This document shows positions 27,337 through 48,144 of a DNA stretch of 64,000 nucleotides, piece after piece. Each line of letters begins with the position of its first letter. The first letter of the stretch is position 1. Source of the DNA: Candidatus Berkelbacteria bacterium. Lineage in GTDB: Bacteria > Patescibacteriota > UBA1384 > 2-12-FULL-50-11. Under the pieces are notes generated by a model. It worked only from the letters and a program-made list of their open reading frames with translations, was not told the DNA's origin and made no database searches. The translations under genes were made by a program, and so were the position numbers. The stretch lies in the NCBI GenBank assembly GCA_016432625.1, contig CP066697.1, positions 586,561 to 650,560 on the forward strand, written 5' to 3'.

Positions 27337-27337
27337 C

Positions 27338-28543: not shown

Positions 28544-28605
28544 ATAATGACTGACTGTATTCTAATAATTAAGCTGTTAATTGGTTCGCAAAAAGCGGAG
28601 GGGTT

Positions 28606-30937: not shown

Positions 30938-31024
30938 TCGGCGAAATGCCGACTTTCCCTAGGGATTTTCCCGGCGGGTATAGGCCTTGGGATTGCAGCA
31001 CTGCCCGTAAGATCTACAATTGTT

Positions 31025-32407
31025 GTGGAGGGAAGTATTAAACGCCGTCGAGGATTCACCTTAATCGAGATATTAATCGATGCGCTTGTCATCACGATAG
31101 TTTTTGGGGCGCTTGCAGGGAGTCTGATCTTTGTTATCAAGAGCGTTAACAGTGGCAAACTTCGTACTGCAGCCGCCACTCTTGCCAACGAGCAGGTTGA
31201 ATATTTGCGTAACCTCCCTTACGACTCACTCTCGACCCAGAACGGCACCATCCTGCCACAGGGCAATATTCCCGATCAACAAACTCTAACCAGAAGTGGC
31301 AACTCGTTTGATTTGAAAACAACTATCATCTTTATCGACGATGTTTTTGATGGCTGCGCTATCCCCTTTGACGTTAATCTTTACCAGTGTACCGACGGCG
31401 GTACGTCTGCAACTTTTGACGTTGTGCCAGTAGACTATAAGCGGCTTACTGTCGAAGCGATGAAGGTTGGGGATCCGACAACCAAGACAACTCTTTCTAG
31501 TAATATCGCCGCGAAAGCGGCTGAAACACCCAGCAACACCGGCATGTTGCTTGTAAAAGTGATCAATGCCCTTGGTCAGCCGGTTGAAGGGGCGACGGTT
31601 ACAGTAACAAACGACGTTACCTTGGTGGATTTGCAGGGTCTTACTAACGCCCAAGGATACGTGTTCGTCGCCAACTTACCTCCCGACAACCAGAACGGCT
31701 ATCACATCGTCGCGACTAAGGACGGTTTCTCCACCGACTTCACCACCGATCGAACGGCGCAAAACCCCAACCAGCTTCAGCCAGACGTCGATATTAATGT
31801 CCAGCAGGTTACCGTTCAAACGCTAGCAATCGATCTGCTAGCAACGGCAACTCTTAACGTAGTGAACGAGCTCGGAGCGCCGCTCTCGGGAGTTGAGGTC
31901 ACCGCAACCAGTAATAAACTGCTATATACCAACCCGGACACGCCAAAGAACGTCTATGTCCAATCGAGTAACGGAACTGGCGTGGCGGTGTTCGCTAACA
32001 TCGAGTGGGACAGCTACAGCTTCACCGTCGCAAGCAGTTACCATGTCATCAGCACTAGTCCATACCAAAAGGTCGCGATCAATCCTGGTATCAATACCAA
32101 TGTCACATTAGCCCTTACTACCGACCCGAACTGGCCGCGCATTGATAGCGTCAGTCCCACTTCTGGAGTAGCCGGCGATACAGTGGTGGTTGCTATTGAA
32201 GGTGATAACTATGGCGGCAACGCTACGGTGATCCTGCGTCAAGCCGGGCAAGCCGACATTGTCCCAACAGTAATTGACGTCAACCCCAACCAAAAATCTC
32301 TCAATGCTACTTTCAACTTAACGGGCGCGGCGAGCGGCGCCTGGGACATTGTTCTTACCTCCAACAACCAAATCGTGACACAGCAGGGAGGTTTTACGAT
32401 CTCATGA
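31025..32407 (+). CDS. large prepilin-type protein (class III signal, G/FTLIE) with C-terminal beta-sandwich repeats
   Basis: MEGSIKRRRG-FTLIEILI prepilin cleavage/methylation motif; 460 aa with CarboxypepD_reg-like and Ig-like segments. Confidence 0.65.
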   Translation: MEGSIKRRRGFTLIEILIDALVITIVFGALAGSLIFVIKSVNSGKLRTAAATLANEQVEYLRNLPYDSLSTQNGTILPQGNIPDQQTLTRSGNSFDLKTTIIFIDDVFDGCAIPFDVNLYQCTDGGTSATFDVVPVDYKRLTVEAMKVGDPTTKTTLSSNIAAKAAETPSNTGMLLVKVINALGQPVEGATVTVTNDVTLVDLQGLTNAQGYVFVANLPPDNQNGYHIVATKDGFSTDFTTDRTAQNPNQLQPDVDINVQQVTVQTLAIDLLATATLNVVNELGAPLSGVEVTATSNKLLYTNPDTPKNVYVQSSNGTGVAVFANIEWDSYSFTVASSYHVISTSPYQKVAINPGINTNVTLALTTDPNWPRIDSVSPTSGVAGDTVVVAIEGDNYGGNATVILRQAGQADIVPTVIDVNPNQKSLNATFNLTGAASGAWDIVLTSNNQIVTQQGGFTIS

Positions 32408-32991
32408 GACTACGCAAGCAAAAGGCATTTTCGCTCGTCGAGATGATCATCGCGATAAGTATTATCGCGCTTTTCGGTGGGCTTGTAGCGACAAATATTA
32501 TCCAAACCTACCGCAACCATCAGATTGCCGAAGCGCAGTCGATTACCCAGCGCGACTTAAACCTTATGATCGACCGAGTTAGTCGGGTTTTGCGTAGCAC
32601 GACACTGATTCTTGAGACAACAGAAACCGGTCTGAAAGTACGGGGTTATCCTAAAGTTAACGATCCGGCGCCAAGTGAGATCTACTTCTATATCGAGAAT
32701 AGCGCCCTCAAATACTCCGTCATCCCCCCTACTGGCACAGCCCCCAATTATACCTACGACCCGAACGACGCCCAGTATTTCACGTTACTGCCCAAGGTCA
32801 CTAACTCTGTCGCTAATCCGCTATGGCGTTATTACGACGAAAATAGTGATCTCCTTGCTTTCCCGGTCAATAAAGCCGATGTCCGAATCGTTGAGACGCT
32901 ACCCTTTGCGCTCGACTCGGGTAACGCTCTGAGCGCGCCAATTGGGATTTCAACTAAAATAGCTCTGAGGAACTTTAAAACAAATCTTTAA
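32404..32991 (+). CDS. pseudopilin / minor pilin (prepilin-type N-terminus)
   Basis: KQKA-FSLVEMIIAISIIALFGG N-terminal methylation-type motif with Glu at +5. Confidence 0.55.
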   Translation: MRLRKQKAFSLVEMIIAISIIALFGGLVATNIIQTYRNHQIAEAQSITQRDLNLMIDRVSRVLRSTTLILETTETGLKVRGYPKVNDPAPSEIYFYIENSALKYSVIPPTGTAPNYTYDPNDAQYFTLLPKVTNSVANPLWRYYDENSDLLAFPVNKADVRIVETLPFALDSGNALSAPIGISTKIALRNFKTNL

Positions 32992-34407
32992 ATGACTATA
33001 AGACGTGGCTACAAGAAAGGTTTTGTCTTACCACTGGTGCTGGGCTTTGCTGCAGTGGTTCTAATTATCACTAGCGCCCTGCTCTCGCTGACGGCCAACA
33101 ATTATAATGTCGTCAAAAAGCAGTCCAACTCCAATTCCGCCCTTAGCGTTGCCGAAGCCGGCATTAATTACTATCTCTGGCACTTATCCCATAACAACCA
33201 AGACTATTGTGACGGTAACTCTTGCGCTGGAAACGGGCCGTTCGGGCCTTATACCCACCAGTACTTCGACACTGCCGGCCAATCGGCCGGTAGTTACGAC
33301 ATCACGATTACTCCGCCGAGTGGCAACAGCACCTCGGTCACCGTAAGATCCGAAGGGACGTCAGTCAGCGGCGAGAAGCGAACGGTTTTGGCAACTTTGG
33401 GCGTTCCGTCTTTCGCACAGTATTCTTTCGTTACAAACTCTGAGGCCTGGTTCGGCGATACTGAATCGACGAATGGTTTAGTACACTCCAATCGTGGCAT
33501 TCACTACGACGGCACGGCCAACGGCGTAGTTGCCTCAGCGGTCGAAACGTACCAGCCGAGCTCGTGCTTTGGTGGTGACGGAAGTACCCATGATGGCGTT
33601 TGGGGAACTGGTGGGCCGCAAGGATACTGGAATTTCCCCGTACCGCTAGTTGATTTCAACCAGTTAACAAGCGACTTGGGTGATCTTCAGATCGCCGCGC
33701 AGGCTAACGGTATCCACTTACCAACACTGCTCGACGGACAAGGACGTAAGACGCACAGCGGTTATGCCATTCGTCTTAACGCCGACAGCACTATAACTGT
33801 CGGTAAAGTTACGGCTCAGCGCGATAACGGCGGAACCGGGGGTACCTGCGTCAATCACCCGCGTTATAATTCTTTGATGCAAAATATCGCCTGGGAGAGC
33901 ACCAACCGAAATTTACCGCCAAACGGCATAATTTTTGTGGCTGACAACGCTTGGGTTTGGGGCACGGTGACAAGTAGATTGACGATCGCTTCTGGGCGGT
34001 TGCCCGATAACAATTCGACAAACACTAATATCTTCCTGCAAAACGATATCAGCTACACCGTTAAGGACGGCTCCGTCGCCTTGGGCCTAATTAGTCAGGC
34101 AGATCTGGTGCTTAACTCAAGTTCGGAGGACGACTTGGTGATTGACGCTTATTTATTGAGTCAAAAAGGCAAAGTTTTCCGTCCGTATTATCCAGGTAAC
34201 ACCAAGACAATAATCAGCGTCTACGGCGGTATCGCTTCCAACTCGTGGTGGACCTGGAGTTGGGTAAACGGCAGTAACCAAGTGATCTCAGGCTACGGAA
34301 CGACGGTACAGACTTACGATACATATCTGGCCCTTAACCCCCCGCCTCAGTTTCCGACTACAGGCTCGTTTGCGATCCTAAGTTGGAAGGAAGAGCCGAT
34401 TCTGTGA
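32992..34407 (+). CDS. PilX-like large pilus-associated protein with N-terminal TM helix
   Basis: KKGFVLPLVLGFAAVVLIITSALLSL pilin-like hydrophobic N-terminus lacking Glu5; 471 aa Gly/Ser/Thr/Asn-rich ectodomain; last gene of the pilus operon. Confidence 0.4.
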   Translation: MTIRRGYKKGFVLPLVLGFAAVVLIITSALLSLTANNYNVVKKQSNSNSALSVAEAGINYYLWHLSHNNQDYCDGNSCAGNGPFGPYTHQYFDTAGQSAGSYDITITPPSGNSTSVTVRSEGTSVSGEKRTVLATLGVPSFAQYSFVTNSEAWFGDTESTNGLVHSNRGIHYDGTANGVVASAVETYQPSSCFGGDGSTHDGVWGTGGPQGYWNFPVPLVDFNQLTSDLGDLQIAAQANGIHLPTLLDGQGRKTHSGYAIRLNADSTITVGKVTAQRDNGGTGGTCVNHPRYNSLMQNIAWESTNRNLPPNGIIFVADNAWVWGTVTSRLTIASGRLPDNNSTNTNIFLQNDISYTVKDGSVALGLISQADLVLNSSSEDDLVIDAYLLSQKGKVFRPYYPGNTKTIISVYGGIASNSWWTWSWVNGSNQVISGYGTTVQTYDTYLALNPPPQFPTTGSFAILSWKEEPIL

Positions 34408-34410: not shown

Positions 34411-35733
34411 CTAAACGTTCTTAACTTCGACGATGTCGGCCCCAAGCGACTGGAGCTTGGCAACGAGATGCTCGTAGCCACGCTGTAGAACTGCGAAATT
34501 ATGAATAGTGGTCTCTCCCTCAGCGATTAGCGCCGCAACAATGTAAGAGAAACCGGCTCGTAGATCGGGAACTGTTATTTCCGCGCCGTGTAGGGCAGTT
34601 GGCCCCTTTACGCGCGCACTTTGTCGGTAGTTACGCTTACCAAATTTAGAATGTATTGATTCAACCGGCTCCTCGATAACCTCAATATCAGCGCCCATGC
34701 TGTTGAGAGCGTCAATATAGCCAAAACGGCTTTGGTAAACAGTTTCCCTGACTATAGAAATGCCCTTAGCCTGAGTGAGAACAATTACCAGCGGCTGTTG
34801 CCAGTCAGTCATGAAGCCTGGGTGAACATCTGTTTCGACGGTAATGGGCGTCAGCTCGTGATTGCTACGATAAAAAGTAATGCCGTCTCGGCTGACGTCA
34901 AACCCGCCACCAATCTGGTGGTATTTGTTGAGGAACGTCATCATATCGAGCTGGTTGGCGTTCCGGACAAAGATCTTGCCGTTTGTGCCAAGGGCCGCGC
35001 ACGCCCATGAGGCTGCCTCGATTCGGTCGGGCATACCGCTATGAGTCGTGCCGTGCAAAAGTTTAACCCCTTCGATTGTAATCGTTCGATCGGTGTCCAC
35101 GGAGATAACCGCACCCATTTTCTGCAAGAAGGCGATGAGATCCAAAATTTCCGGTTCAACAGCAGCATTATGAATAGTCGTCGTCCCCTCTGCTAAAACG
35201 CTCGCGAGCAGAACTTGTTCCGTGGCTCCAACACTTGGGTACTCAAGCTCAATCTCCGCACCGCGTAATTTACTAGTTTTAAACCAAGCCCGGCCGTTCT
35301 TTTCTTCGTAGATCGCCCCCAACTCTTTTAAAGCATTTATGTGAAAATCAACCGGTCGTGGGCCGATATCGCAACCACCGACTTTAGCGACAATCGCATG
35401 ACGAAAACGCGTGAGCAATGGGCCACACATCAGAATTGGGATTCGACTACGCCCGGTGATATCTTCGATATCTTGCTCTTTGAGCGCCCGCATGCCTTGA
35501 GCAGTGATCTGCAACGTCCCAGGCCGAACTTCTTCCACTTTAACGCCAAGCCGACGAAACAGCGTAGTCATAATTTCGACGTCTTCAATCGAGGGAACGT
35601 CGCGAATAATACACGGCTCATCCGTCAAAAGCGCCGCCACCATGTTCTTAGGCACAGCGTTTTTCGCGCCACGTAAGGCTATCTCGCCAACGAGCGGTTT
35701 ACCGCCGCGAAGGCGAATATAACTATCGGCCAT
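34411..35733 (-). CDS. murA: UDP-N-acetylglucosamine 1-carboxyvinyltransferase
   Basis: MADSYIRLRGGKPLVGEIALRGAKNA; full-length EPT fold including the catalytic Cys loop. Confidence 0.9.
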   Translation of the reverse strand: MADSYIRLRGGKPLVGEIALRGAKNAVPKNMVAALLTDEPCIIRDVPSIEDVEIMTTLFRRLGVKVEEVRPGTLQITAQGMRALKEQDIEDITGRSRIPILMCGPLLTRFRHAIVAKVGGCDIGPRPVDFHINALKELGAIYEEKNGRAWFKTSKLRGAEIELEYPSVGATEQVLLASVLAEGTTTIHNAAVEPEILDLIAFLQKMGAVISVDTDRTITIEGVKLLHGTTHSGMPDRIEAASWACAALGTNGKIFVRNANQLDMMTFLNKYHQIGGGFDVSRDGITFYRSNHELTPITVETDVHPGFMTDWQQPLVIVLTQAKGISIVRETVYQSRFGYIDALNSMGADIEVIEEPVESIHSKFGKRNYRQSARVKGPTALHGAEITVPDLRAGFSYIVAALIAEGETTIHNFAVLQRGYEHLVAKLQSLGADIVEVKNV

Positions 35734-35813: not shown

Positions 35814-36245
35814 CTAAGCGGGTGGGTTGGTCGCTGCTTGCTCTTTCGGCTTGTCAGTTTTTGAGCCGGTCACAAGTAGGTTTTTGACTTTCTCGATTAC
35901 CTCGCCAGGCATCATCTCGGACTTAACGATGTAGTCGTCAGCACCACGAGTGATACTCTCCATCTTTTCTCGGTCTTGGATGAGAGCGGTTAAAACAATA
36001 ACGGGGATACTTCTTGTCTCGTCCTGTTCTTTGAGTTTTTTCAAGACATCGAGCCCGTTAATTTTCGGCATCATGATGTCCAGCAGAATGATATTTGGCT
36101 TCAACTCTGTGGCCATCGATAACGCTTCTTCGCCGTCCTTAGCCATCTCTACCGAAAAGCCTTCAGCCTTGAGGCGCTCCGAGTACATCTCGCGCAAGGT
36201 TAGGTCGTCGTCAACCAAAAGTATACTTTTGAATGAATCAGCCAT
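35814..36245 (-). CDS. stand-alone response-regulator receiver (REC) domain protein
   Basis: ILLVDDD...LLDIMMPKINGLDV...IPVIVLTAL; no output domain. Confidence 0.8.
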   Translation of the reverse strand: MADSFKSILLVDDDLTLREMYSERLKAEGFSVEMAKDGEEALSMATELKPNIILLDIMMPKINGLDVLKKLKEQDETRSIPVIVLTALIQDREKMESITRGADDYIVKSEMMPGEVIEKVKNLLVTGSKTDKPKEQAATNPPA

Positions 36246-36296: not shown

Positions 36297-38585
36297 TTAG
36301 TGCCCCTTCTCGGTTGATGCCGTGACCAATGCGGGCGGTTTCTTATCTTGCAGCTCCACTCGGGGCGCTGAGAGCGGTCCCTCCAGGATAGCGCCGTCGA
36401 TTTTCTCCGGCGGCTCAGTCAACACCGGCAGTTCGAAGATAAAGTCGCTCCCCTTACCCTCCTCCGACTCCACCCAGATGCGGCCCTTGTGCAATTCGAC
36501 AAAATTCTTACTGATGTACAGACCTAGGCCAGTACCTTTCTGCTCATCAATTTCGCGTTTGACTTGGGAGAACTTCTGGAACAGTTTCTTCTGGCCGTCT
36601 GCGGATATGCCGCGGCCGGTATCGATAACGTCAAAGCGAAGCTTGCCGGCATCGGCACCGATTTTCATGACAATGCCACCTTTTTCGGTGTATTTAATCG
36701 AGTTGCCGACTAAGTTGACGATAACCTCGCGGATTCGGTCGGGATCGCACCAAGTTTCTGGGACAGCCTTTTTGTCGGCTTCGAGTTTTATCGTCAGTTT
36801 CTTGGCGTCAACCTTTACCTGCAGCTCGTGTAGGACAGACTCGGCCAGGTCGTAAAGATTGGTCTTGGCAAATTTCATCTTGACGCGACCCTGTTCAATA
36901 CGGGAGACGTTCAGGAGGTCAAGAATCAGTTCGGCGAGACGTTTTGAGGAGTCGTAGGCGCGGTGCAAGTAGACGCTAGCCTTCTTATCAACCTTACCCA
37001 TGTGCTCATCCAGAATCATCGAGAGGTAGCCTTCAACGGCGGCGAGTGGGGTATTGAGCTCGTGAGAAGCCATGGAGATGAACTCGTCCTTGAGCTTATC
37101 GAGGTCAGCCAGGTATTCATTGGCGCTCTTTAACTGCTCAAAGGCGTAAGCCCGTTGGATCGCCAGCGAGGTCTCGTCGGCGATTGCCGTTGCCATATCG
37201 ACGTCGCGCTCTTCAAGCTGCTCCTTGGGCACGCGATAGGCAAACAGCATCACGCCTAGCGGTTCCTTGCCGGCAAACAGCGGCACTGCCAAGACGTATT
37301 TTAGGCCCGTTAAGGTCTGAATCGTCGCCGCAACAGGTTTGCCAATTGGCGGAGAGATGAAGTCACTGAGACGAGTGGATTCCTTGAGCTGGTGTTCAAT
37401 CAGGGCGTTATGCAGCATGTTGAAGTCTTTCTTAATCGGATAGCTATACCGGTCAAGGTCGCTACCGACAAGGCTGTATATCTTCTTTGTGAATTCGTTA
37501 GAGGAGATGGCGTAGGCGGCTAAATGACCTCCTTTTACCAGGTTTAGGAGCGCACCGTTGCAGTTGTCGAATTGTTTGGGAATCTCATCGAGGATTGCCT
37601 GCAGCATTGGCCTCATTTCATTCTGGTTAAGCACCATCTTTGAGACCTTCTGCAACGCCGCTAGGTTTTTATTCCGCTGCTCCAGTTCCTTTAGAGTCTC
37701 AGTTTTCTCCGCCGCCAGCTGTTCGATCTCCTTCCTTCTGGCAATTTCCCGTGAAACGTTACGAACTAGGGAGTAGCTCCCTATGGCTACTAACACAGTG
37801 ACTAAGGACTTTAGGAGTAGCTCCCCTGCTGACCTAGAGAGGAAGATTTGAGTCAGGAGCACAATATTTAGCCCTAATGCCACCACAGCCGTCACGACTG
37901 CCCTGATATCGAAAAGTCGATGCGCTACTATCGAATATGCAGTCCCCAACACGAATAGAATGGAAGAATAATTTCCGACCTTATAATAACGGTCTGAACC
38001 AACAATAGGACGTACGACGTAATAAACTATGAGATTTACTGCGACTACTGCCGTGATACCCAGGAAAAAGATCTGCAACTGACTCTTTTCTTGGCCTTGA
38101 GCTTCTTTGTATTTAATCAGGAAATGATAAATCGAGGCAACGAAGACAACGAACAGGAAGGTTAGAAGAAGGTAGTATCCCTGCCCAGTAATTAGCTCGC
38201 TCCCGAACTCTTTGAAAGTGACTCCACTAACAACGAGATTGGAAAACAATGATATTGCTGCAAGGAGGGCGCCCAGGAAATATGCGAGTTTTGTCGTTAA
38301 CCCATTGTGTTTATGGGAGTGCGGAAAAATAAAAGAGAAGTGAAGTAGTATCGGCCCAAGAAACGCCAGGGAAACAAAAACAAGACGGTTGAAGAGTAGT
38401 GATAGAGATTCTTGGCGAAAATAGTCAGATAAAAATGCAAAAGTTATCCAGCCGAGAATGGTTGTTACTAGGGTGGCAAAGACCAGATTTGAATTCTTTT
38501 TCCTGTCTTGTGCGATGACCGCAATAGTGATTGTGATACCCACAAGATCGATGAGCGGAACGATAAAGTTATCGAGGTATTGCAT
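36297..38585 (-). CDS. sensor histidine kinase: multi-TM sensor domain + GAF + HisKA + HATPase_c
   Basis: About 8 N-terminal TM helices, GAF-like middle, H-box FISMASHELNTPLAAVEGY, N/G1/G2 ATPase boxes. Confidence 0.85.
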   Translation of the reverse strand: MQYLDNFIVPLIDLVGITITIAVIAQDRKKNSNLVFATLVTTILGWITFAFLSDYFRQESLSLLFNRLVFVSLAFLGPILLHFSFIFPHSHKHNGLTTKLAYFLGALLAAISLFSNLVVSGVTFKEFGSELITGQGYYLLLTFLFVVFVASIYHFLIKYKEAQGQEKSQLQIFFLGITAVVAVNLIVYYVVRPIVGSDRYYKVGNYSSILFVLGTAYSIVAHRLFDIRAVVTAVVALGLNIVLLTQIFLSRSAGELLLKSLVTVLVAIGSYSLVRNVSREIARRKEIEQLAAEKTETLKELEQRNKNLAALQKVSKMVLNQNEMRPMLQAILDEIPKQFDNCNGALLNLVKGGHLAAYAISSNEFTKKIYSLVGSDLDRYSYPIKKDFNMLHNALIEHQLKESTRLSDFISPPIGKPVAATIQTLTGLKYVLAVPLFAGKEPLGVMLFAYRVPKEQLEERDVDMATAIADETSLAIQRAYAFEQLKSANEYLADLDKLKDEFISMASHELNTPLAAVEGYLSMILDEHMGKVDKKASVYLHRAYDSSKRLAELILDLLNVSRIEQGRVKMKFAKTNLYDLAESVLHELQVKVDAKKLTIKLEADKKAVPETWCDPDRIREVIVNLVGNSIKYTEKGGIVMKIGADAGKLRFDVIDTGRGISADGQKKLFQKFSQVKREIDEQKGTGLGLYISKNFVELHKGRIWVESEEGKGSDFIFELPVLTEPPEKIDGAILEGPLSAPRVELQDKKPPALVTASTEKGH

Positions 38586-39367
38586 TACTCCCCGGCCAGA
38601 TGAAGAATGTGCGGATCGAAGCTTATAAAGTCCGGCGCCTTTTTCACTGGCAAGCCAAGAACGAGACGCTTTATTGCAATTACCGACAATGCGGCAGTAG
38701 AGTAAGCAGCACTAGCTGGCTGTGGGATATTATCTAGCCTGCCCTCTATTACATCGTTTAGAACTGGGCTCAGGTACTCGGGGATTATTCCAGTGTAATA
38801 GGCCATGAACTTGTCTCTAAGTCCCGAGTCATTTCCCCGCTCGCTCTCTGTAATCTCAAGCATCTCTTCCAGAGACTTACTATCCTTTGTAAAGATAAAA
38901 ATGCCTCCGCCCCAGCCAATATCAACTGGATATACCACGGGGAGTCCCATCTTTTTGCATTGTCGGTGCAGCTCTACGACAGCCATAGGAGACTCTAGAG
39001 GGTCTATAGCATCTACGACCACATCGATACCTTCAAGGGCGGCTGAAATATTAGAGCTGTCTAAAAAACTACCTATTTCTTTAACGTGAATGCGCCTATT
39101 GAGCTTCTTGAGTCTTCTAGCTAAAGCCTCGACTTTTGGCTGCCCGAGATCATCGGAACTGTACTCCTGGCGATTAAGATTGCTCTCCTCCACTACGTCA
39201 CCATCAGCTAGTACGATGTGGTGGAAACCGGTTCTGGCTACCCCCACCGCGATGACCGATCCGATTCCACATCCAGCAATGAGTACGGTCTTCCCTGCTA
39301 GTTCATGGTACTGTTTCTCTGAAAGAAGACCCAGGTTCCTACTTAGAAATGCCTTATTAACCTCCAT
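38585..39367 (-). CDS. ThiF/MoeB/HesA-family E1-like adenylyltransferase
   Basis: Rossmann motif VLIAGCGIGSVIAVGVARTGF and ESNLNRQ; 260 aa; no rhodanese domain. Confidence 0.8.
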   Translation of the reverse strand: MEVNKAFLSRNLGLLSEKQYHELAGKTVLIAGCGIGSVIAVGVARTGFHHIVLADGDVVEESNLNRQEYSSDDLGQPKVEALARRLKKLNRRIHVKEIGSFLDSSNISAALEGIDVVVDAIDPLESPMAVVELHRQCKKMGLPVVYPVDIGWGGGIFIFTKDSKSLEEMLEITESERGNDSGLRDKFMAYYTGIIPEYLSPVLNDVIEGRLDNIPQPASAAYSTAALSVIAIKRLVLGLPVKKAPDFISFDPHILHLAGE

Positions 39368-39383
39368 TGAATACAGTATACAT

Positions 39384-39929
39384 TCACAGCTTTAGACGGA
39401 CAGGATAGTTCATAGTATTCATGTATTCGTTCGAAGGAGAGCCAATCTCCACGAAGTCATATCCCCTCTTCTTCAGGCTTTTAAGTAACCAGTCCTCTAC
39501 AACAGCGTAAATATTCTTGACGTCATTCTCTTTGACAATCTTTAATATTTCTTCAGCCAGTAAACGAAAAATTTCTCGTCGTGTCTCTTGCTTGCGACGG
39601 TACGCTTTAGCGATCATAAAACGCGAGACTTCACAAGAATGGCCCATATCTTTTTCTTCGGGCAGTTCGAAATGCTCGAAAATCGGCAACGCTTTTTCCG
39701 CGGGCAGTATAACCCTAGCGTAGCCAGCTAGGCGTCGCCCAATCAGTACAACTACGTGAATGGACTGCCCATCGTACTCATCGGACTCTCGACGGTGCTG
39801 GTATTTATCGCTTTCAAGAAAGCCCTTCTCTTCCACGTAAACCCGGTAACGAAGTTCCGCAATCTTCGGAAACAAATCATCGTTGACAAGTATTCTCTCT
39901 ACGTGTGGCCGAGCCCTGAGTAATAACAT
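39384..39929 (-). CDS. LuxI / N-acyl-amino-acid-synthase-like GNAT N-acyltransferase
   Basis: Motifs RYRVYVEEKGF, ESDEYD, VVVLIGRRLAGYARVILP and SCEVSRFMI match the autoinducer-synthase/NAS fold pattern (R..VF..E.GW; E.D.YD; G.L.G..RL.P; E.SRF). Confidence 0.6.
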   Translation of the reverse strand: MLLLRARPHVERILVNDDLFPKIAELRYRVYVEEKGFLESDKYQHRRESDEYDGQSIHVVVLIGRRLAGYARVILPAEKALPIFEHFELPEEKDMGHSCEVSRFMIAKAYRRKQETRREIFRLLAEEILKIVKENDVKNIYAVVEDWLLKSLKKRGYDFVEIGSPSNEYMNTMNYPVRLKL

Positions 39930-40112
39930 TCAGCAAAGAGTATACCGCCTAAACGTGCTTATTAAATGGCCGAGCATGCGTTCATTCTAGCTCATATCAG
40001 TTTTTTGCTAAACTACCCCGGGCTCGTCGACTTATAGGTCGATCAGTTCCTAGCGACTTCTCAATACCCGACGAAAATAGTCGCGGGAGTTTCATAATCG
40101 GAGGTAATTGAG

Positions 40113-40226: not shown

Positions 40227-41246
<1,020 letters not shown>

Positions 41247-41257
41247 AGGAGGTCGTC

Positions 41258-42340
41258 ATGTCTGAAATCGTTCGCGTCGCAACAAAAGCGATGAGGATGA
41301 TGCTCGGCGAGCAAGACGACCCTGAACTCATCCTTCTCTCCTTCCCCGGAAGTTCTGGTGCGAGAGTGTCGCTTTTTAGACACGCTCGCACCAATTCTCT
41401 CTATGCAGTGAAGTGCGTGGCGCAGTCACGGGTTTCACTAATGGACGAGATCGGAAGAAGAAACGCACTAACGCCTTACCTGCCGGATCACCTCCCGCAG
41501 GTATTATGGTGCCAAGTGTTGGACGGCTTCGAGGTCATGATCTCCGAGTGTAAGGGGATACATTCCCTCCATCACCTCATTATCAACTCCAACGTGCCTC
41601 ACAGTCGTTTACTAGGAGTCTGGAAGGACTTTATAGAGGCGCTACTGCGAATGTGGCAAGGTTCCGAGCACCAGTTCAATGAAGCTCTGTGCCCGCGCTT
41701 CTTTCCCGCCCGGCTGGGTAGGATTGAGCAGGGTATTCGTAATGCGACCGTTGGCAAGACCAAGCTCTCCGAGTGTTGGGATATGCCAGTGGTCGTCAAC
41801 GGTAGCGAATACCAGTCTATCGCAAAATCGTTCGAGGCGATTGCCCAGGTGGGCAAGCCAAAAATGGGCGTAGTGTGCCACGGCGATCCTCAGCCCAGCA
41901 ATATCGTTGTCGGGACGAGGTACTCATGGTACTGCGTAGACTGGGAGTGGGCAGGCCCTCATCAGGATTGGAGAATGATGTTGGCCAATCTCTACGGGTG
42001 GTGGTCTACCCGTTGCAGCGTCTTGTCTACCGATGCCGTCTTGCGAGTGTCTCGAAATCGTCTTGAAATCGAACACAGCTCGTACGTGCCGACCCACTTA
42101 CAACCGTACCAAGACATCGCGCGCTCCGTTGCTTCGACGATGTCAGCTGGATTTCCGAGTGAGGAGACGACAAATGACGTTAACCGGTTTCTCGCCGCGC
42201 TCTACTTTGGGGAGATTAGATTTCTTCACATGTGGGGACGCGAGGCTTTCGCTGAAACAATGCTGGCTCAGGCCATCACTACGATTAGCGGATCATATCG
42301 GGGCGCTAACGCACAGTCGTTCAGATTCCCTCAACAATAA
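41258..42340 (+). CDS. APH/ChoK-like phosphotransferase (protein-kinase-like fold)
   Basis: Brenner motif VCHGDPQPSNIVV and D-W-E metal-binding motif YCVDWEWAG; start 12 nt after the trpS stop. Confidence 0.6.
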   Translation: MSEIVRVATKAMRMMLGEQDDPELILLSFPGSSGARVSLFRHARTNSLYAVKCVAQSRVSLMDEIGRRNALTPYLPDHLPQVLWCQVLDGFEVMISECKGIHSLHHLIINSNVPHSRLLGVWKDFIEALLRMWQGSEHQFNEALCPRFFPARLGRIEQGIRNATVGKTKLSECWDMPVVVNGSEYQSIAKSFEAIAQVGKPKMGVVCHGDPQPSNIVVGTRYSWYCVDWEWAGPHQDWRMMLANLYGWWSTRCSVLSTDAVLRVSRNRLEIEHSSYVPTHLQPYQDIARSVASTMSAGFPSEETTNDVNRFLAALYFGEIRFLHMWGREAFAETMLAQAITTISGSYRGANAQSFRFPQQ

Positions 42341-42351
42341 GGAGTAGGCAT

Positions 42352-43197
42352 ATGTATCGAACGTTCATGACTCAACAAAACTTCGACTTTGTCCAGCAGG
42401 CCATAAGGCGCCTAGCTGGGGAGGTCGAGGCAAAAGACGGGGACGGAAGCTTCTGGGTGAACTACGGCAGCTTCGTGCTGAACCAACAAACGCCCGAGAG
42501 CGATCTTGACCTGCTCTTCATCCACAGTCAGCCAACCGCCGTACGAAGAATCCAGTCATCTTTCAGTGGCCACGACGTTACGATCTACTCGCTCAACAGA
42601 AGAGATTTTGTTAGCGACGGTCAACGCAGGGTGTTTGGAGGATACTTCGGCGGTAAGGTTCTTAACCCCCTGGTTACGTTCAATGCCTCGGAGAAGGATC
42701 AAAGCATGCTACTGGAGGTCGGTGGGTTATTCATCGGCCAATTCGCTTCTGCGATAGCAGATAAGCATGTTCGGAGAACCTCCACGAAGGCAAACCTTGC
42801 GGCAGATTCGGTCCTAGCAAGACTCCATCTTTGCCCTTGGTATCGAAGCTACTTTCTGCGGTACTTCACCTCACCGACTTTCCCACAGCTGTGGGACAAG
42901 ATGTCGGAGGTGACTACCCTGTCTTTCCTGAAAGCAGGGATAGTGACGCAGGACGACGACAACTTTCGCTACCTAAATACGCTCTCACTCGCGGATTTAC
43001 ACGAGACTGCCCTTGAGGCAGTTGCCCGATTCTGGGCGTTAGGTAGCTGTCTACACGGTGCTTTACCCGACTTTCCGGCATTTTACATGCAGAAGGCCGA
43101 GCAGTACGTGCGGGACAACCGACTAGAAAATCGCCTGGAGGAGATGATGAGTTTTCTCCAAGCCCAGTCCAACACAGGAGGAACCCATGTTAACTGA
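42352..43197 (+). CDS. Pol-beta-superfamily nucleotidyltransferase
   Basis: Minimal NTase motif NYGSFVLNQQTPESDLDLLFIH (G-S-x9-13-D-h-D); 281 aa. Confidence 0.6.
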   Translation: MYRTFMTQQNFDFVQQAIRRLAGEVEAKDGDGSFWVNYGSFVLNQQTPESDLDLLFIHSQPTAVRRIQSSFSGHDVTIYSLNRRDFVSDGQRRVFGGYFGGKVLNPLVTFNASEKDQSMLLEVGGLFIGQFASAIADKHVRRTSTKANLAADSVLARLHLCPWYRSYFLRYFTSPTFPQLWDKMSEVTTLSFLKAGIVTQDDDNFRYLNTLSLADLHETALEAVARFWALGSCLHGALPDFPAFYMQKAEQYVRDNRLENRLEEMMSFLQAQSNTGGTHVN

Positions 43198-44221
43198 GTC
43201 CTGGCTTCAAGACAGGATGCGATTGGCCGCAGCTGAGGCGACTGTTACCGTCAAGCAGTTTGCGCTTGAGACGATCGCAGATTCGCCAGACGACGCGTTC
43301 ACCGAGATACGTAACGGGTTCGCACGAGTCGGCGTCTTCGCGTTCCAGAACCCGGTACCGGTTTTCGAAGCCATGCTCGACCGGAAACAGTTCTCTGTTC
43401 TCGTCGGTATGCGCCCGAACGCGGTATTTCATCTCGGACATCTTACGCTTATGCGAGAATTGCATTGGCTCATCCAGCAAGGCGGCCAACCGATCTTCGT
43501 GTTTGCGGGATATGAAGCTGATCGACATATCACGACAAGTGAGGCAGAGCAGGAGACGATGCGCTTTGATCAAGCGTACCGGAAGTTCACCGGGACTCCA
43601 TTGCCGGCAACCGCAGTGAGCTTCTCCGATCAAGACAGTCAAGAGCTGAAAGTCCTAGAGTTAGGCGCTGCGAAGTGCTTATCTACAAGGAAGGTTCTTC
43701 AGTTGTATGGCTGGGACGCGAGCATCCCACTCGCTTCGTTACGCGTACCTGCCATTACGGCAGCAGCGTTTCTTCTGCCTACGACCCTCTACCCGAAACG
43801 GCCGGCACTGGTACTTTCGGACATCCATCAAGTCACACATGCAGAAGCCGCCAAGATCGTGGCCTGCAAACTACAACTCCCTTCGCCCAGCTACTCGTAT
43901 CGCCTGCTTCTTCCGAGTCTGAGGGGCCCGACAAAGAGAATGAGCGCTAAGGACGCCAAGTCGCTCATCACGCTCATTGAACCAACGGAGCAGGTGGAAC
44001 GTAAGCTACGTCAATGCTTTTCCGGAGGTCGTCAAAGCCCCGAGGAACAGCGAAGCGCGGGCGGCGACCCACAGCACTGTTCCTTCTTCCGGATTGCCGA
44101 GCTGCTACAGCCTTACGAGACTACAGCGCAGATGCATGAGGACTGTGTTTCAGGAGCATCGCTGTGTGGTGAGTGCAAAAAGAAGCACTTGAGCAATATC
44201 GCAAGGAGGATCCATGGATAG
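43187..44221 (+). CDS. divergent TrpRS/TyrRS-like class I aminoacyl-tRNA-synthetase paralog with Cys-rich C-terminus
   Basis: HIGH-like GMRPNAVFHLGHLTLM, KMSKS-like KRMSAKD, C-terminal DPQHCSFF...CVSGASLCGECKK; about 55 aa N-terminal extension; overlaps the NTase gene by 11 nt. Confidence 0.65.
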   Translation: MLTESWLQDRMRLAAAEATVTVKQFALETIADSPDDAFTEIRNGFARVGVFAFQNPVPVFEAMLDRKQFSVLVGMRPNAVFHLGHLTLMRELHWLIQQGGQPIFVFAGYEADRHITTSEAEQETMRFDQAYRKFTGTPLPATAVSFSDQDSQELKVLELGAAKCLSTRKVLQLYGWDASIPLASLRVPAITAAAFLLPTTLYPKRPALVLSDIHQVTHAEAAKIVACKLQLPSPSYSYRLLLPSLRGPTKRMSAKDAKSLITLIEPTEQVERKLRQCFSGGRQSPEEQRSAGGDPQHCSFFRIAELLQPYETTAQMHEDCVSGASLCGECKKKHLSNIARRIHG

Positions 44222-44236
44222 GAAAAATCCAGACCG

Positions 44237-44276
44237 AAAAGGCCGGCCGTGCGATGCACTTACCGGCCTTTTTTTG
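44237..44276 (+). terminator. Rho-independent terminator after the trpS-kinase-NTase-trpS2 operon
   Basis: GGCCGGCCGTGCGATGCACTTACCGGCC stem-loop followed by TTTTTTT. Confidence 0.6.
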
Positions 44277-44302
44277 ACTCCCAAGGCGCGAGTTAGCGTC
44301 AC

Positions 44303-44331
44303 TTGACACCCAGGTTAACTCAACCTACTAT
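44303..44331 (+). promoter_or_regulatory. putative promoter (TTGACA-17-TACTAT) driving a leaderless leader-peptide transcript
   Basis: TTGACA at 44303-44308, 17 nt spacer, TACTAT at 44326-44331; predicted +1 coincides with the ATG at 44339. Confidence 0.4.
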
Positions 44332-44338
44332 TACCAAG

Positions 44339-44392
44339 ATGGTTAAACAGCTGTCGACTACAACTTGGTGGGGAGGCTTGACACTGATTTAG
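44339..44392 (+). CDS. 17-codon leader peptide MVKQLSTTTWWGGLTLI with tandem Trp codons
   Basis: ATG 44339, TGG TGG at 44366-44371, TAG stop 44390-44392; followed by an antiterminator/terminator arrangement upstream of the ligase gene. Confidence 0.45.
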   Translation: MVKQLSTTTWWGGLTLI

Positions 44393-44429
44393 GTGACTAG
44401 GCCACTTTGCCATAACTAAAACCACGAGG

Positions 44430-44450
44430 CCCGGTCACCCGGGATTTTTT
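44430..44450 (+). terminator. attenuator terminator hairpin (CCCGG-TCAC-CCGGG + U6) 20 nt upstream of the ligase start
   Basis: 5 bp all-GC stem, 4 nt loop, TTTTTT at 44445-44450; upstream GGTGAC (44392-44397) is complementary to GTCACC (44434-44439) inside the hairpin. Confidence 0.45.
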
Positions 44451-44469
44451 GTACCTCACAAGGAGCCCT

Positions 44470-45225
44470 ATGATTACCCTTTCGACATACGCTTCGCAGT
44501 TCGCTTTTGCGCCCGAACACACCCTGCATATAGGGGTGGAGCGCGAAAGCTTCCTCGTCCAACACAGCGAGATCGTACCAGCAGCGTTCGAGGTGCTGAA
44601 AATGCTACCTCAACCGCGATTCGGTTACGAACTTTCAGCGTGCCAACTGGAAGACCGCGTCGGTCCGTGTCAGTTAGCTCAACTACCAGACGAGCTGAAA
44701 CGAAACGATGAGTTAGCCGAGGAGGCACTGAGTCTTCTCGGTCTGCGGCGACTGTTCCTAGAAGTCGCTCCTGACTCCATGCCGCTCGACCACTACCCCT
44801 CGAAACGTTACGACGAGATCGTCGCCAAGATCACCAAAGAGCGTCTTCTCGCTGCTTGCCAGGTGACGGGCACCCACGTTCATGTCGGTATGCCCGATGC
44901 GGATACGGCCATGAGGGTACATAGCGCCGTCATCCCTTACACCGACGAGCTCTGTCAAATGGGTGACCACTCTGGTGGTCGTCGCTTGCAGATCTATCGG
45001 ATTATGGCTGCCGACTATCAGCCAATCGCCTGGCGGGGCTGGGATCACTTCGAGGCCTACGCCATCGAGCATGACTTCGTCAACGACCCACGCTCGTGCT
45101 GGCACCTGATTCGCTTGTCGGTTCACGGCACGATCGAGTTTCGAATGTTTGGCAGCCCGCGTTCCAACGACGACGTCGTCAACTGGGCAGAACGTTGCTA
45201 CTCACTGTGTCGTGACGCCCTCTGA
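44470..45225 (+). CDS. short GCS2/YbdK-family carboxylate-amine ligase (gamma-glutamyl-cysteine-ligase-like)
   Basis: IGVERESFLV, QVTGTHVHVGMPD and WHLIRLSVHGTIEFRMFG match the YbdK motifs (GIELE..V; HVHVG; W.IRPS.HGT.EVR); AGGAG RBS before the ATG at 44470 (the ORF track offers an upstream TTG at 44449); lacks the C-terminal third of YbdK. Confidence 0.6.
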   Translation: MITLSTYASQFAFAPEHTLHIGVERESFLVQHSEIVPAAFEVLKMLPQPRFGYELSACQLEDRVGPCQLAQLPDELKRNDELAEEALSLLGLRRLFLEVAPDSMPLDHYPSKRYDEIVAKITKERLLAACQVTGTHVHVGMPDADTAMRVHSAVIPYTDELCQMGDHSGGRRLQIYRIMAADYQPIAWRGWDHFEAYAIEHDFVNDPRSCWHLIRLSVHGTIEFRMFGSPRSNDDVVNWAERCYSLCRDAL

Positions 45226-45253
45226 TGAATGGGGGGCCACTCCCCCATTCATC
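45224..45253. terminator. perfect 12 bp inverted repeat between convergent genes (bidirectional terminator candidate)
   Basis: GATGAATGGGGG-gccact-CCCCCATTCATC; overlaps the TGA of the ligase (45223-45225) and the stop of the deacylase (45252-45254). Confidence 0.6.
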
Positions 45254-46218: not shown

Positions 46219-46290
46219 GCCCTCGTAGCCTAGTGGTTAAGGCAACGGTCTCCAAAACCGTCGACGCAGGTTCGAATCCTGTCGAGGGTG
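46219..46290 (+). tRNA. trnW: tRNA-Trp (anticodon CCA)
   Basis: Hand-folded cloverleaf: acceptor GCCCTCG/CGAGGGT (one G-U), U8, D-arm GCCT-AGTGGTTAA-AGGC, anticodon stem ACGGT/ACCGT with loop CT-CCA-AA, T-arm GCAGG-TTCGAAT-CCTGT, discriminator G; CCA not encoded. Confidence 0.85.
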
Positions 46291-46322
46291 CAAACAAAAT
46301 CCCGAATCGTGAGGAAAATACT

Positions 46323-48113: not shown

Positions 48114-48144
48114 GGCGGAAAGCTTCAAAACTTTCCGCCTTTTT
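48114..48144 (+). terminator. Rho-independent terminator of the tRNA-Trp/decarboxylase operon
   Basis: GGCGGAAAG-cttcaaaa-CTTTCCGCC followed by TTTTT; abuts the plsC stop codon. Confidence 0.55.

Follow-up and report, generated by a model that had tools for sequence, protein, structure and literature searches.

Organization of the operon

The operon described here raises the question of what a gene resembling the autoinducer synthases might do beside a ThiF-like enzyme and a sensor kinase in a bacterium of the Candidatus Berkelbacteria (CPR), which has a very small genome. It lies on a contig of 768,791 bp, within the stretch of 64,000 nucleotides that was analyzed (the window). The first-pass annotation had described an acyltransferase (GNAT) that shares an operon with three other proteins, namely a ThiF lacking a partner, a 7TM-GAF histidine kinase, and a receiver-only response regulator (REC), and all four open reading frames were found on the minus strand at the positions claimed (Table 1). 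The ThiF gene begins 16 nt downstream of the GNAT gene, as had been noted, its stop overlaps the kinase start by 1 nt (base 38585, within TAATG), and the kinase and REC genes are 51 nt apart. The sigma-70-like site upstream of the GNAT gene, within the 300 nt that separate this gene from the divergently oriented trpS, is a candidate only, because promoter-like sites are no more common than in shuffled sequence.

Table 1. Features of the operon and its surroundings, in window positions.
Feature	Position	Strand	Remarks
Sigma-70-like promoter candidate	39984-40011	-	TTAGCA-16-TAGAAT, 9/12
GNAT, 181 aa	39384-39929	-	N-acyltransferase with the LuxI/FeeM fold, predicted to synthesize N-acyl amino acids
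GNAT, last ~23 aa	about 39384-39455	-	Part of the variable cassette (C-terminal co-variation)
ThiF-like adenylating enzyme, 260 aa	38585-39367	-	Stand-alone, type A; without RRE, Zn/CxxC, or ThiS/MoaD partner
Histidine kinase, whole, 762 aa	36297-38585	-	7TM-GAF
Kinase sensor part, aa 1-~250	37836-38585	-	Sensor type A; 7-8 hydrophobic helices, HisKA_7TM, low GC3; varies among relatives
Kinase cytoplasmic part, aa ~251-762	36297-37835	-	Conserved; last TM/linker, coiled segment, GAF, HisKA, HATPase_c
Receiver-only response regulator (REC), 143 aa	35814-36245	-	DD12-13, D56, T86, and K107 present
MurA	34411-35733		Next after REC
Exchangeable cassette	~37800-39450	-	GNAT 3' tail, tailoring-enzyme gene, and 7TM sensor coding region

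The acyltransferase

The four landmark motifs from which the GNAT had been likened to the autoinducer synthases and the N-acyl amino acid synthases (NAS) are present (R27-F37, E48-D53, G64-P76, and E100-F104), and they align with positions that are conserved in the AHL synthases BjaI and TofI. Seven residues, R27, E48, D53, R72, E100, S102, and R103, are invariant over 64 relatives. The LuxI/FeeM fold is also recovered in the AF2 model (pLDDT 90.6), whose top Foldseek matches include BjaI, TofI, LasI, RpaI, MesI, and FeeM; the best of these are AHL synthases, rather than FeeM, and the best PDB sequence match is BjaI (E 2e-4). The protein belongs to a tight clade of its own; of 1.84 billion representatives, only two reach E<=1e-30.

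The profile searches favor the second of the two proposed families. The Pfam models Acetyltransf_5 (48.2 bits) and FeeM (35.4 bits) both exceed their cut-offs, whereas Autoind_synth (21.4 bits) falls under its gathering cut-off of 24. The best NCBIfam match is TIGR03694, the PEP-CTERM/exosortase-associated NAS (Craig, Cherry & Brady 2011, cited in PMC7293339), which is matched by all 64 nearest relatives, compared with 59 for FeeM and 49 for Autoind_synth. The GNAT shares with the TIGR03694 enzymes and FeeM (PDB 2G0B) the fold and the R/E/D/R/E-S-R positions, and TIGR03694 is its best curated family, although it scores 88 bits against a cut-off of 112, is shorter (181 vs ~240 aa), and is found outside any exosortase context. 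Given this, the protein is better placed among the NAS than among the LuxI AHL synthases.

A survey of CPR genomes had noted a LuxI-like gene beside a sensor kinase earlier, as well as a Trp-to-Phe change, naming such genes LuxI homologues, 18 of them beside sensor kinases (PMC7567580). These loci share the kinase adjacency, while the survey described neither a ThiF or methyltransferase partner nor any exchange of cassettes. The locus could, in these terms, represent classical LuxI-type quorum sensing, with the GNAT using SAM and an acyl donor to make an AHL, which the kinase would sense in the manner of LuxN, and the ThiF as an unrelated passenger. The AHL synthases are the nearest solved structures, almost every LuxI landmark residue is retained, and most of the relatives match Autoind_synth. 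The exception, however, is the Trp of the SAM pocket, which is replaced by Phe (F37), the GNAT itself fails the Autoind_synth threshold, and no LuxR-type receptor was found near the operon. The partner enzymes imply a free carboxylate, and an AHL would offer none for a ThiF to adenylate, and yet ThiF domains are fused to such GNATs, and are swapped together with the sensor. This reading is thus very doubtful.

The ThiF-like enzyme

The enzyme matches PF00899 at 110.9 bits, and its ATP-site residues (G32, G34, G36, D55, D57, N63, R66, Q67, K78, and D119/D122) are invariant. It misses all the NCBIfam equivalog cut-offs. The closest solved homologue is AclA of Tenacibaculum discolor (PDB 9EGB, 9EGC, and 9EGD; for 9EGB, E 1e-30, ~35% identity, and TM 0.84), with the helical C-terminal part included, and the PDB matches also include ThiF, MoeB, and MccB (E ~1e-11 to 1e-12) and PaaA (5e-7).

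The first-pass annotation had raised the possibility of a modified-peptide product, of the MccB or PaaA type. In broader terms, the ThiF may be a peptide- or protein-directed E1-like enzyme, involved either in RiPP maturation (MccB/PaaA/GrcB), with the GNAT modifying the same peptide, or in sulfur-carrier activation (ThiF/MoeB). The PF00899 membership and the PDB matches would be expected of such an enzyme. The protein is only 260 aa long, however, and its adenylation domain begins at residue ~9, which leaves it without an RRE or peptide clamp; its C-terminal part is helical, and neither an RRE nor a CxxC zinc site was found in its sequence. No plausible small ORF ending in GG (ThiS/MoaD-like) is present anywhere in the window, which agrees with the claimed lack of a ThiS/MoaD partner, and precursor ORF, peptidase, and exporter were likewise not found. 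In addition, a housekeeping role would not give way to a methyltransferase in sister genomes. The peptide product is thus not supported, and a peptide- or protein-directed role is extremely improbable.

A more informative comparison is provided by OxzAB (Pseudoalteromonas rubra), TyzACB, and TrzAS (Mycobacterium tuberculosis), in which a NAS with the FeeM/LuxI fold adjoins, or is fused to, a ThiF-like ATP-dependent cyclase that works on the carboxylate of the N-acyl amino acid, the two producing N-acyl oxazolones (PMC10404671, PMC12856293, bioRxiv 10.1101/2020.06.11.147165). The same pairing is found elsewhere. In two proteins, P0230 (488 aa) and P0239 (515 aa), a NAS is fused to a ThiF domain that matches the full length of the window ThiF at 36% and 32% identity, respectively, and at L018/L019 a bona fide TIGR03694 NAS (138 bits) adjoins a ThiF. 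A further protein, P0255, is a methyltransferase-NAS fusion. The ThiF is thus predicted to activate the carboxylate of an N-acyl amino acid.

The window pair differs from these systems in a number of ways. The ThiF is a stand-alone protein, and its score on the TrzS (Rv1355c) model is no more than 54 bits. The two genes are also transcribed together with those of a 7TM histidine kinase and a receiver, and the host belongs to the CPR. The characterized oxazolone pathways all have a flavin desaturase, whereas no nitroreductase-family desaturase, fused, adjacent, or elsewhere in the window, was found in the operon or the 44 scanned window proteins, with Pfam matches covering most of the pilus block. 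In these pathways, the cyclized non-oxidized intermediate builds up when O2 is lacking or the desaturase is defective (PMC10404671; PMC12856293; PMC12596934). A rough NJ tree separates the ThiFs linked to NAS from the canonical ThiF-like sequences, and places them beside the AclA-like family, an abundant stand-alone family of the Bacteroidota with no NAS or kinase neighbor in two inspected loci. AclA, as the nearest solved homologue, might point to a different reaction.

Composition of the segment and the chimeric kinase

The GNAT gene, the ThiF gene, and the first part of the kinase gene had been described as AT-richer than their surroundings, and this difference is real, though moderate. The GC3 is 0.489 in the GNAT, 0.475 in the ThiF, and 0.458 in kinase aa 1-260, compared with 0.651 in aa 261-762, and all seven 180-codon windows of the segment (0.417-0.489) fall under the 5th percentile (0.494) of the 343 windows taken elsewhere in the stretch (mean 0.573, sd 0.051). 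The reported preference for AGA, AGG, and GGA codons applies to the ThiF (7/12 Arg and 8/22 Gly), but not to the GNAT (4/18 Arg, which is unremarkable).

The change of style within the kinase had been ascribed either to membrane-domain bias or to a chimeric junction. Bias alone does not account for the low GC3, because the other membrane proteins of the window are normal (0.55-0.57). The kinase has the Pfam domains HisKA_7TM, GAF_3 (aa 403-478), HisKA (499-566), and HATPase_c (614-721), while REC has Response_reg only. Comparison with relatives indicates that the kinase is a chimera, whose junction lies at aa ~250 (nt ~37800), about a third of the way along the protein.

Exchange of the cassette among relatives

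The low-GC3 block coincides with a segment that is exchangeable among the relatives. The suggestion that the circuit had been acquired from elsewhere applies to this middle cassette, but not to the operon frame (GNAT, kinase core, REC, MurA, and pil genes), whose gene order is kept in related CPR genomes at 64-93% identity. Shared synteny in relatives, which the first-pass annotation had named as an argument against its own reading, is thus observed for the frame, but not for the cassette. In the relatives whose cassette is replaced, the kinase core, receiver, and MurA remain 76-93% identical. In comparisons with the window, REC is 81-83% identical in close relatives (L054, L012, and L003; 81-93% within the group), the C-terminal part of the kinase 77-84% (81-84% in the same three relatives; 77-89% within the group), and MurA 76-80% (L012 and L003 only). 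The cassette, by contrast, has a nucleotide identity of 0.37-0.53 to relatives of other types, compared with 0.57-0.79 in the flanks, and the breakpoints, as read from the profile of identity along the locus, lie at ~39450 and ~37800. The N-terminal part of the kinase is 61% identical within a type and 22-30% across types, and the ThiF 59% and 36%, respectively. As judged from these alignments, the comparison shows that the last ~23 GNAT codons, the enzyme gene or genes, and the region of the kinase gene that encodes the 7TM domain are swapped as one cassette.

At least four types of cassette are found. Types A and B carry the ThiF-A and ThiF-B enzymes, and each reappears in more distant genomes (L004 and L056). 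Type C has a 3TM anchor and a SAM methyltransferase in place of the ThiF, and type D an anchor, a methyltransferase, a ThiF, and a fourth sensor. As both enzymes occur together in one locus (L059), the methyltransferase and the ThiF do not simply stand in for each other in capping the carboxylate. A further locus (L008) has the GNAT and the methyltransferase, with no kinase in the approximately 2 kb left before the contig end. Only about nine loci were informative. The ThiF distances are correlated with those of the kinase N-terminal part (Mantel r=0.83, p=5e-5), rather than the C-terminal part (r=0.30, p=0.17). This comparative part, the exchange of cassettes with the co-variation of enzyme and sensor, is what is new here.

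The co-variation alone does not prove ligand recognition, since an adjacent enzyme and sensor travel together in any recombination block. A fast-evolving surface 7TM and its neighbor gene may simply be replaced through their conserved flanks by homologous recombination, with no recognition of the product. The adjacency of the genes would allow a single tract to carry both, within type A itself the cassette is more diverged (59-61%) than the flanks (83-84%), and the loci are few. The breakpoints nevertheless follow domain boundaries at both ends, four enzyme complements each have their own sensor, and NAS/ThiF and a HisKA_7TM kinase are found together again in different lineages and gene arrangements (ThiF-GNAT-HK in L016 and ThiF-MFS-...-HK in L014), which makes linkage by itself quite improbable.

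The synthesis or remodeling of aminolipids of the OlsB/OlsA type, in which the GNAT would build an envelope lipid, the ThiF or methyltransferase would decorate its head group, and the 7TM kinase would monitor the envelope, appears unlikely. OlsB models are matched by 32 of the 64 GNAT relatives, the type C methyltransferase is membrane-anchored, and a PlsC-type acyltransferase gene lies directly upstream of the NAS gene in L054 and in the unrelated L018, and within 8 kb in the window. In the window, however, ~8 kb of unrelated genes separate PlsC from the operon, it lies outside the swapped cassette, and the window GNAT matches one OlsB model only weakly, far under the cut-off (15.7 vs 320 bits). 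The break lies exactly at the boundary between the kinase sensor and transmitter, and enzyme and sensor types pair one to one, which is more in keeping with a ligand and its receptor than with sensing of the envelope in general. If aminolipids were the product, the diversity of the cassettes would represent surface variation, against phages or hosts, for example.

A putative lipid-signal module

The operon may constitute a self-contained module that both produces and perceives a lipid signal made from an N-acyl amino acid, and that diversifies in the manner of pherotypes. This is the preferred reading, and it is given about an even chance of being correct. Family membership suggests that the GNAT would acylate the alpha-amino group of an amino acid, with acyl-CoA or acyl-ACP as the donor of the fatty acyl chain. 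The gene fusions, the adjacency, and the enzymology of homologous pairs point to the ATP-dependent adenylation of the free carboxylate of this N-acyl amino acid by the ThiF. The amide oxygen might then attack the acyl-adenylate intramolecularly, yielding a 2-alkyl-5(4H)-oxazolone, or another nucleophile may do so. Because no flavin desaturase was found in the operon or the scanned window proteins, the oxazolone ring would be expected to remain saturated, and a saturated oxazolone is hydrolytically labile, which makes it awkward as a diffusible signal.

The hydrophobic product would enter the membrane and be recognized by the 7TM region of the co-transcribed kinase, as the operon structure and the co-variation suggest, and the kinase would then signal through GAF, HisKA, and HATPase to the receiver-only regulator. 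Candidates for the output are the conserved neighboring genes, namely murA and those of the type IV pilus.

In the agrBDC system of the staphylococci and the comQXP system of Bacillus, the signal-maturation genes and the membrane sensor of the kinase are hypervariable and change in step with each other, whereas the core of the kinase and the regulator are conserved, and the signals are ribosomal peptides. The window operon resembles these systems in the co-variation of enzyme and sensor, the conserved core, and types that do not follow the phylogeny of the flanks, but has no peptide gene, and the signal predicted for it is a derivative of an acylated amino acid. Cassette exchange yields at least four enzyme and sensor types, comparable to the agrBDC or comQXP pherotypes, and the joint swapping of a modifying enzyme and a sensor domain is the pattern of quorum-sensing “dialects”.

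Organization of the Operon

The window is taken from a contig of 768,791 bp whose annotation places it in the CPR lineage Candidatus Berkelbacteria. It contains an operon that begins with the acyltransferase (GNAT) gene, followed by the genes of a ThiF-family protein, a histidine kinase, a receiver-only regulator (REC), and MurA. The Pfam searches confirmed the domains assigned to the first four of these proteins by the first-pass annotation. The kinase contains the HisKA_7TM, GAF_3, HisKA, and HATPase_c domains, and the combination of HisKA and HATPase_c with a receiver that has a phospho-acceptor aspartate (Pfam and sequence) identifies a two-component system. The receiver residues D12/D13, D56, T86, and K107 are all present in the sequence. 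The candidates recovered by the promoter and terminator scan were not above chance, and the Rfam search of the whole window returned two tRNAs and nothing else.

A type IV pilus cluster, which includes PilM, PilN, and pilin-like N_methyl proteins, abuts the murA and receiver genes, and this neighborhood is also kept in two of the related assemblies (L003 and L012). The output of the receiver-only regulator may be this pilus cluster.

Positions of the operon genes, the neighboring features, and the features of related loci
Feature	Locus	Position	Strand	Remarks
GNAT, 181 aa	window	39384-39929	minus	ORF; Acetyltransf_5 and FeeM
ThiF-family protein, 260 aa	window	38585-39367	minus	16-nt gap after GNAT
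Histidine kinase, 762 aa	window	36297-38585	minus	start overlaps the ThiF stop by one base
REC, 143 aa	window	35814-36245	minus	51 nt beyond the kinase; Response_reg only
murA	window	34411-35733	minus	fifth gene, after REC
Type IV pilus cluster	window	25447-34407
Five-gene block	window	40230-45225	plus	GC 0.53-0.57
AstE/AspA-family deacylase	window	45252-46112	minus	aspartoacylase-like
AstE/AspA-family deacylase	L003	6280-7104		near GNAT
tRNA-Trp	window	46219-46291		near the five-gene block
PlsC-type acyltransferase, 216 aa	window	48143-48793	minus	8 kb from GNAT
PlsC-type acyltransferase	L054	1048-1698		directly upstream of the synthase
PlsC-type acyltransferase	L018	4583-5230		directly upstream of the synthase
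IleRS-like ORF	window	49168-52209	minus	179-nt overlap with HisRS as listed
HisRS ORF	window	52031-53266	minus
Type D cassette locus	L059	42-3327
Radical-SAM genes and small ORFs	L008	7992-11039		beside GNAT
Radical-SAM genes and small ORFs	L004	3046-5737		beside GNAT
AclA orthologue	L011	6001-6747		~250 aa, stand-alone
AclA orthologue	L058	5001-5762		~250 aa, stand-alone

The Acyltransferase as a Divergent N-Acyl Amino Acid Synthase

The GNAT protein passes the Pfam thresholds of Acetyltransf_5 (48.2 bits; threshold 22.4) and FeeM (PF21926; 35.4 bits; threshold 27), and remains below the gathering threshold of Autoind_synth (PF00765; 21.4 bits; threshold 24). [quoted passage not shown] Within a set of 64 sequences, composed of the window GNAT, its single close relative, and the 62 sequences ranking after them, TIGR03694 matched every member (best E 2.8e-56), FeeM matched 59, Autoind_synth 49, and the OlsB models 32. 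Among 1.84 billion cluster representatives, the profile search recovered 609 proteins at E<=1e-10 and only two at E<=1e-30, which indicates that the protein belongs to a very narrow clade.

The AlphaFold model was based on 21 homologues and has a high confidence (pLDDT 90.6). Its best matches in the PDB are AHL synthases, that is, BjaI (E 1e-10, TM 0.74), TofI, LasI, RpaI, and MesI, with FeeM ranking after them (TM 0.64-0.68). The motifs quoted in the first-pass annotation are present, and align with conserved positions of BjaI and TofI, as do R27, Y31, D50, D53, R72, E100, S102, and R103, with F37 replacing the tryptophan of LuxI; these residues are common to the NAS enzymes, and are thus non-discriminating. 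As both the AHL synthases and FeeM match the model, the fold and the landmark residues cannot separate the LuxI type from the NAS type, in contrast with the curated profiles, which do discriminate between them, given that GNAT passes FeeM and fails Autoind_synth. A true AHL system, with GNAT as a LuxI-type synthase, is an unlikely rival reading; no LuxR-type receptor (Autoind_bind/GerE) was found in the operon or within ±10 kb. We class the protein as a divergent NAS rather than as a LuxI, and it is predicted from its sequence to make an N-acyl amino acid. A published survey of the CPR has already catalogued “LuxI homologues” located next to sensor kinases, and recorded the substitution of Trp by Phe or Tyr in them (PMC7567580).

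The ThiF-Like Partner

Pairs of NAS and ThiF-like enzymes are already known. In the OxzA/OxzB, TyzA/TyzB/TyzC, and TrzA/TrzS pathways, which lead to N-acyl oxazolones, Tyr, Phe, or Trp is acylated by the NAS, the product undergoes ATP-dependent cyclization by a ThiF-like domain, and the last step is an O2-dependent desaturation by a nitroreductase-family flavoenzyme (PMC10404671, PMC12856293, PMC12596934). Clusters of NAS, ThiF, and nitroreductase, in some cases with a methyltransferase, are also found in Planctomycetota and Pseudomonadota (PMC12479983).

As in these pathways, the NAS gene of the window adjoins a ThiF-like gene, and the same pair is present in L004, L012, L054, L056, L059, and L018. 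The relatives of GNAT include natural NAS-ThiF fusions (P0230 and P0239, with ThiF domains 36% and 32% identical to the full-length window ThiF) and a methyltransferase-NAS fusion (P0255), while a bona fide TIGR03694 NAS adjoins a ThiF gene in an unrelated metagenomic lineage (L018/L019). In a rough NJ tree, which has no support values, the NAS-linked ThiFs cluster beside the AclA-like family, apart from the canonical ThiF-like sequences.

Unlike OxzAB, TyzACB, and TrzAS, the window pair has no fused or adjacent flavin desaturase, and no enzyme of the nitroreductase family was found in the operon, in the 44 scanned window proteins, or in the precomputed Pfam hits covering most of the pilus block. 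In TrzS, cyclization comes first, and the cyclized, non-oxidized intermediate accumulates when either O2 or the flavin domain is lacking (PMC12856293), so a ThiF with no desaturase would be able to make a saturated oxazolone. This compound is reactive, and the ThiF may thus instead activate the acyl amino acid for transfer to a different nucleophile. Oxazolones undergo hydrolysis or alcoholysis (PMC12856293). The absence of the O2-dependent desaturase would fit an anaerobic lifestyle in the CPR.

The ThiF domain (PF00899) scored 110.9 bits, and the protein was modeled by AF2 with high confidence (pLDDT 94.8). In the model, the adenylation domain starts at residue ~9 and the C-terminal region of 100 residues is helical. 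The ATP/Mg site is intact, with G32, G34, G36, D55, D57, R66, K78, and D119/D122 being invariant across the family; the exact equivalence to D217 of TrzS, the Asp mutated in D217A, is presumed. The protein misses all the NCBIfam equivalog cut-offs (ThiF, MoeB, TcdA, and TrzS/Rv1355c), and its best full-length matches are the uncharacterized models PRK08223 and PRK14851.

A peptide- or sulfur-carrier-directed E1 is a rival identity for this enzyme. The first-pass annotation had noted the lack of a ThiS/MoaD partner, which was borne out by the absence of any ThiS/MoaD-like or GG-ending ORF outside other genes throughout the window. Given this, together with the absence of the zinc CxxC pair and scores under the ThiF and MoeB cut-offs (108 against 159 bits and 99.6 against 275 bits), a sulfur-carrier adenylyltransferase is very unlikely. 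A modified-peptide product, of the MccB or PaaA kind, had also been suggested, and fared no better. The 260-aa protein has no RRE domain for peptide recognition at its N terminus, and none of the small ORFs, in the 300-nt upstream region or elsewhere, is credible as a peptide precursor or as a ThiS-like gene, which argues against an enzyme of the RiPP type (MccB, PaaA, GrcB, or IndF).

Among solved structures, that of AclA from Tenacibaculum discolor (PDB 9EGB; E 1e-30, TM 0.84) comes closest. The orthologues of AclA make up a very large family of stand-alone proteins in the Bacteroidota, and are extremely common in the Flavobacteriia and Bacteroidales. No paper on the function of AclA was found in the literature search, and the neighborhoods of two orthologues were uninformative with regard to its reaction, one (of L011 and L058) lying near five NHLP-type precursor genes, and the other adjoining an integrase. 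The homologue search with the ThiF profile was dominated by this family and did not reach the characterized cyclases OxzB, TyzB, or TrzS.

Exchange of the Cassette among Relatives

The locus was recovered from related assemblies, and three close relatives (L054, L012/L013, and L003) were compared with the window. The GNAT-profile search of genome contigs returned four loci only, and a metagenome scan with the same profile produced no matches. Identity to the window in the close relatives is 81-83% for REC (up to 93% among the relatives themselves), 81-84% for kinase residues ~256-762 (up to 89%), and 68-75% for GNAT residues 1-158 (up to 87%), with 76-80% for MurA (L012 and L003 only). The middle of the operon, in contrast, is not conserved, and its tailoring enzymes and 7TM sensors fall into at least four types.

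Cassette types, with identities to the window unless otherwise indicated
Type	Loci	Enzyme complement	Enzyme identity	7TM sensor identity
A	window, L054, more distant L004	ThiF-A	59% / 50%	61% / 52%
B	L012, more distant L056	ThiF-B	36%	29%
C	L003, L007	~110-aa three-helix membrane protein and SAM methyltransferase, no ThiF		23%
D	L059	GNAT, 110-aa membrane anchor, methyltransferase, and fourth ThiF	25-31% to other ThiFs (very divergent)	fourth sensor, 18-25% to all others

The boundaries of the exchanged segment were placed at the nucleotide level. The window matches L012 or L003 with an identity of 0.57-0.69 over most of GNAT, 0.37-0.53 from ~39450 to ~37800, and again 0.67-0.79 through the kinase core and receiver. 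The upstream breakpoint lies within the last ~23 codons of GNAT, where the tails differ (YMNTxNxPV in type A versus GEG-xxYMGAxTYPT in types B and C), and the downstream breakpoint is located just ahead of the conserved IGSYSLVRN, where the membrane domain ends. The cassette is not bordered by repeats, either direct or inverted, and there is thus no sign of a mobile element.

Enzyme and sensor co-vary. In pairwise comparisons, the identity of the sensors can be predicted from that of the ThiFs (Mantel r=0.83, p=5e-5; n=8 ThiF-bearing loci), but the identity of the kinase core cannot (Mantel r=0.30, p=0.17; n=6 loci). A rival explanation is that the co-variation arises through linkage only. HisKA_7TM kinases are also found with the same ThiF subfamily in other arrangements, such as ThiF-GNAT-HK (L016) and ThiF-MFS-...-HK (L014).

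The membrane protein and methyltransferase of type C are fused in L008 (342 aa), where GNAT and the fused protein are followed by no kinase in the approximately 2 kb left before the end of the contig. The methyltransferase has a BioC-like match, which scores far under threshold. The idea that ThiF and methyltransferase are alternative caps for a single carboxylate was ruled out by L059, which has both. In some relatives, GNAT has radical-SAM genes beside it, as well as small ORFs of 44-63 aa that carry no annotation.

The AT-rich segment reported in the first-pass annotation coincides with GNAT and the cassette, with GC3 values of 0.489 in GNAT, 0.475 in ThiF, 0.458 in kinase residues 1-260, and 0.651 in the remainder of the kinase. 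All seven 180-codon windows of the segment fall under the 5th percentile of 343 windows elsewhere. The codon usage of GNAT by itself is not clearly atypical. The kinase genes of the relatives have the same GC3 step; the low GC3 is thus a property of the cassette pool, rather than the result of recent import from outside the group.

A block of five genes on the other side of GNAT encodes a TrpRS, a 360-aa protein with no Pfam match, a 281-aa nucleotidyltransferase, a 344-aa second TrpRS/TyrRS-like paralogue, and a GCS2-type carboxylate-amine ligase. Its three middle genes are AGA/AGG-rich, and the block looks like an insertion, as it is missing from that position in L003 and L054; it is possibly an aminoacyl-derived small-molecule cluster. 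The overlap of the IleRS-like and HisRS ORFs is probably not genuine, and most likely reflects a wrongly placed start codon in the mechanical ORF list.

A Possible Signaling System and Its Significance

The most economical reading of the locus has four parts. GNAT would make an N-acyl amino acid, which would be tailored by ThiF or, in other types, by the membrane-anchored methyltransferase, or by both. The matching 7TM domain of the kinase would then read the lipophilic product and signal to the single-domain receiver, with enzyme and sensor diversifying jointly. The gene order, the families, the fusions, the limits of the cassette, and the co-variation are direct observations; the substrates, the oxazolone product, the sensing, and the output are predictions. 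In the agr and comQXP pherotypes, enzyme and sensor diversify together. The window locus follows this pattern, in that the tailoring genes vary in step with the sensor domain, and conservation is seen in the kinase core and the regulator. The similarity of the 7TM domain to LuxN is not significant (E 0.04-0.1). An AstE/AspA-family deacylase is encoded near GNAT in both the window and L003, and might degrade the predicted signal, given that enzymes of this type hydrolyze N-acyl amino acids.

The synthesis of structural aminolipids with PlsC is a rival to this signaling system, and is favored by the adjacency of a PlsC-type gene in L054 and the unrelated L018, an arrangement that recalls the OlsB/OlsA aminolipid gene pairs. 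The window also encodes a PlsC-type acyltransferase, at some distance from GNAT.

Tentatively, and with rather less than even confidence, we propose that CPR of the Berkelbacteria group use an undescribed chemical language, in which an NAS and an exchangeable tailoring enzyme would produce N-acyl amino acid derivatives (saturated oxazolones and methylated forms), read by matching, exchangeable 7TM sensors in several distinct pherotypes. The literature search found no description of a two-component operon that includes an NAS-ThiF pair lacking the desaturase, of alternative methyltransferase cassettes, or of the joint exchange of a tailoring enzyme and a 7TM sensor.

The N-acyl amino acids are widespread, as are the acyl-oxazolones, a recent discovery, and the physiological roles and receptors of both are unknown, according to the papers that defined the pathways. 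If the proposal is true, the class of N-acyl amino acids and acyl-oxazolones would gain its first cognate receptor, and the locus would be the first non-peptide signaling system with an agr/com-like diversification of dialects. ThiF-like chemistry would also be extended by a pathway that is desaturase-free and O2-independent. Even if the rivals are right, the locus is still a clear case of domain-precise cassette exchange within a histidine kinase gene. A synthase pair hard-wired to a kinase, with enzyme and sensor swapped jointly, provides a directly testable ligand-receptor hypothesis, and would open experimental access to cell-cell or host-symbiont signaling in the uncultivated, reduced-genome bacteria of the CPR.
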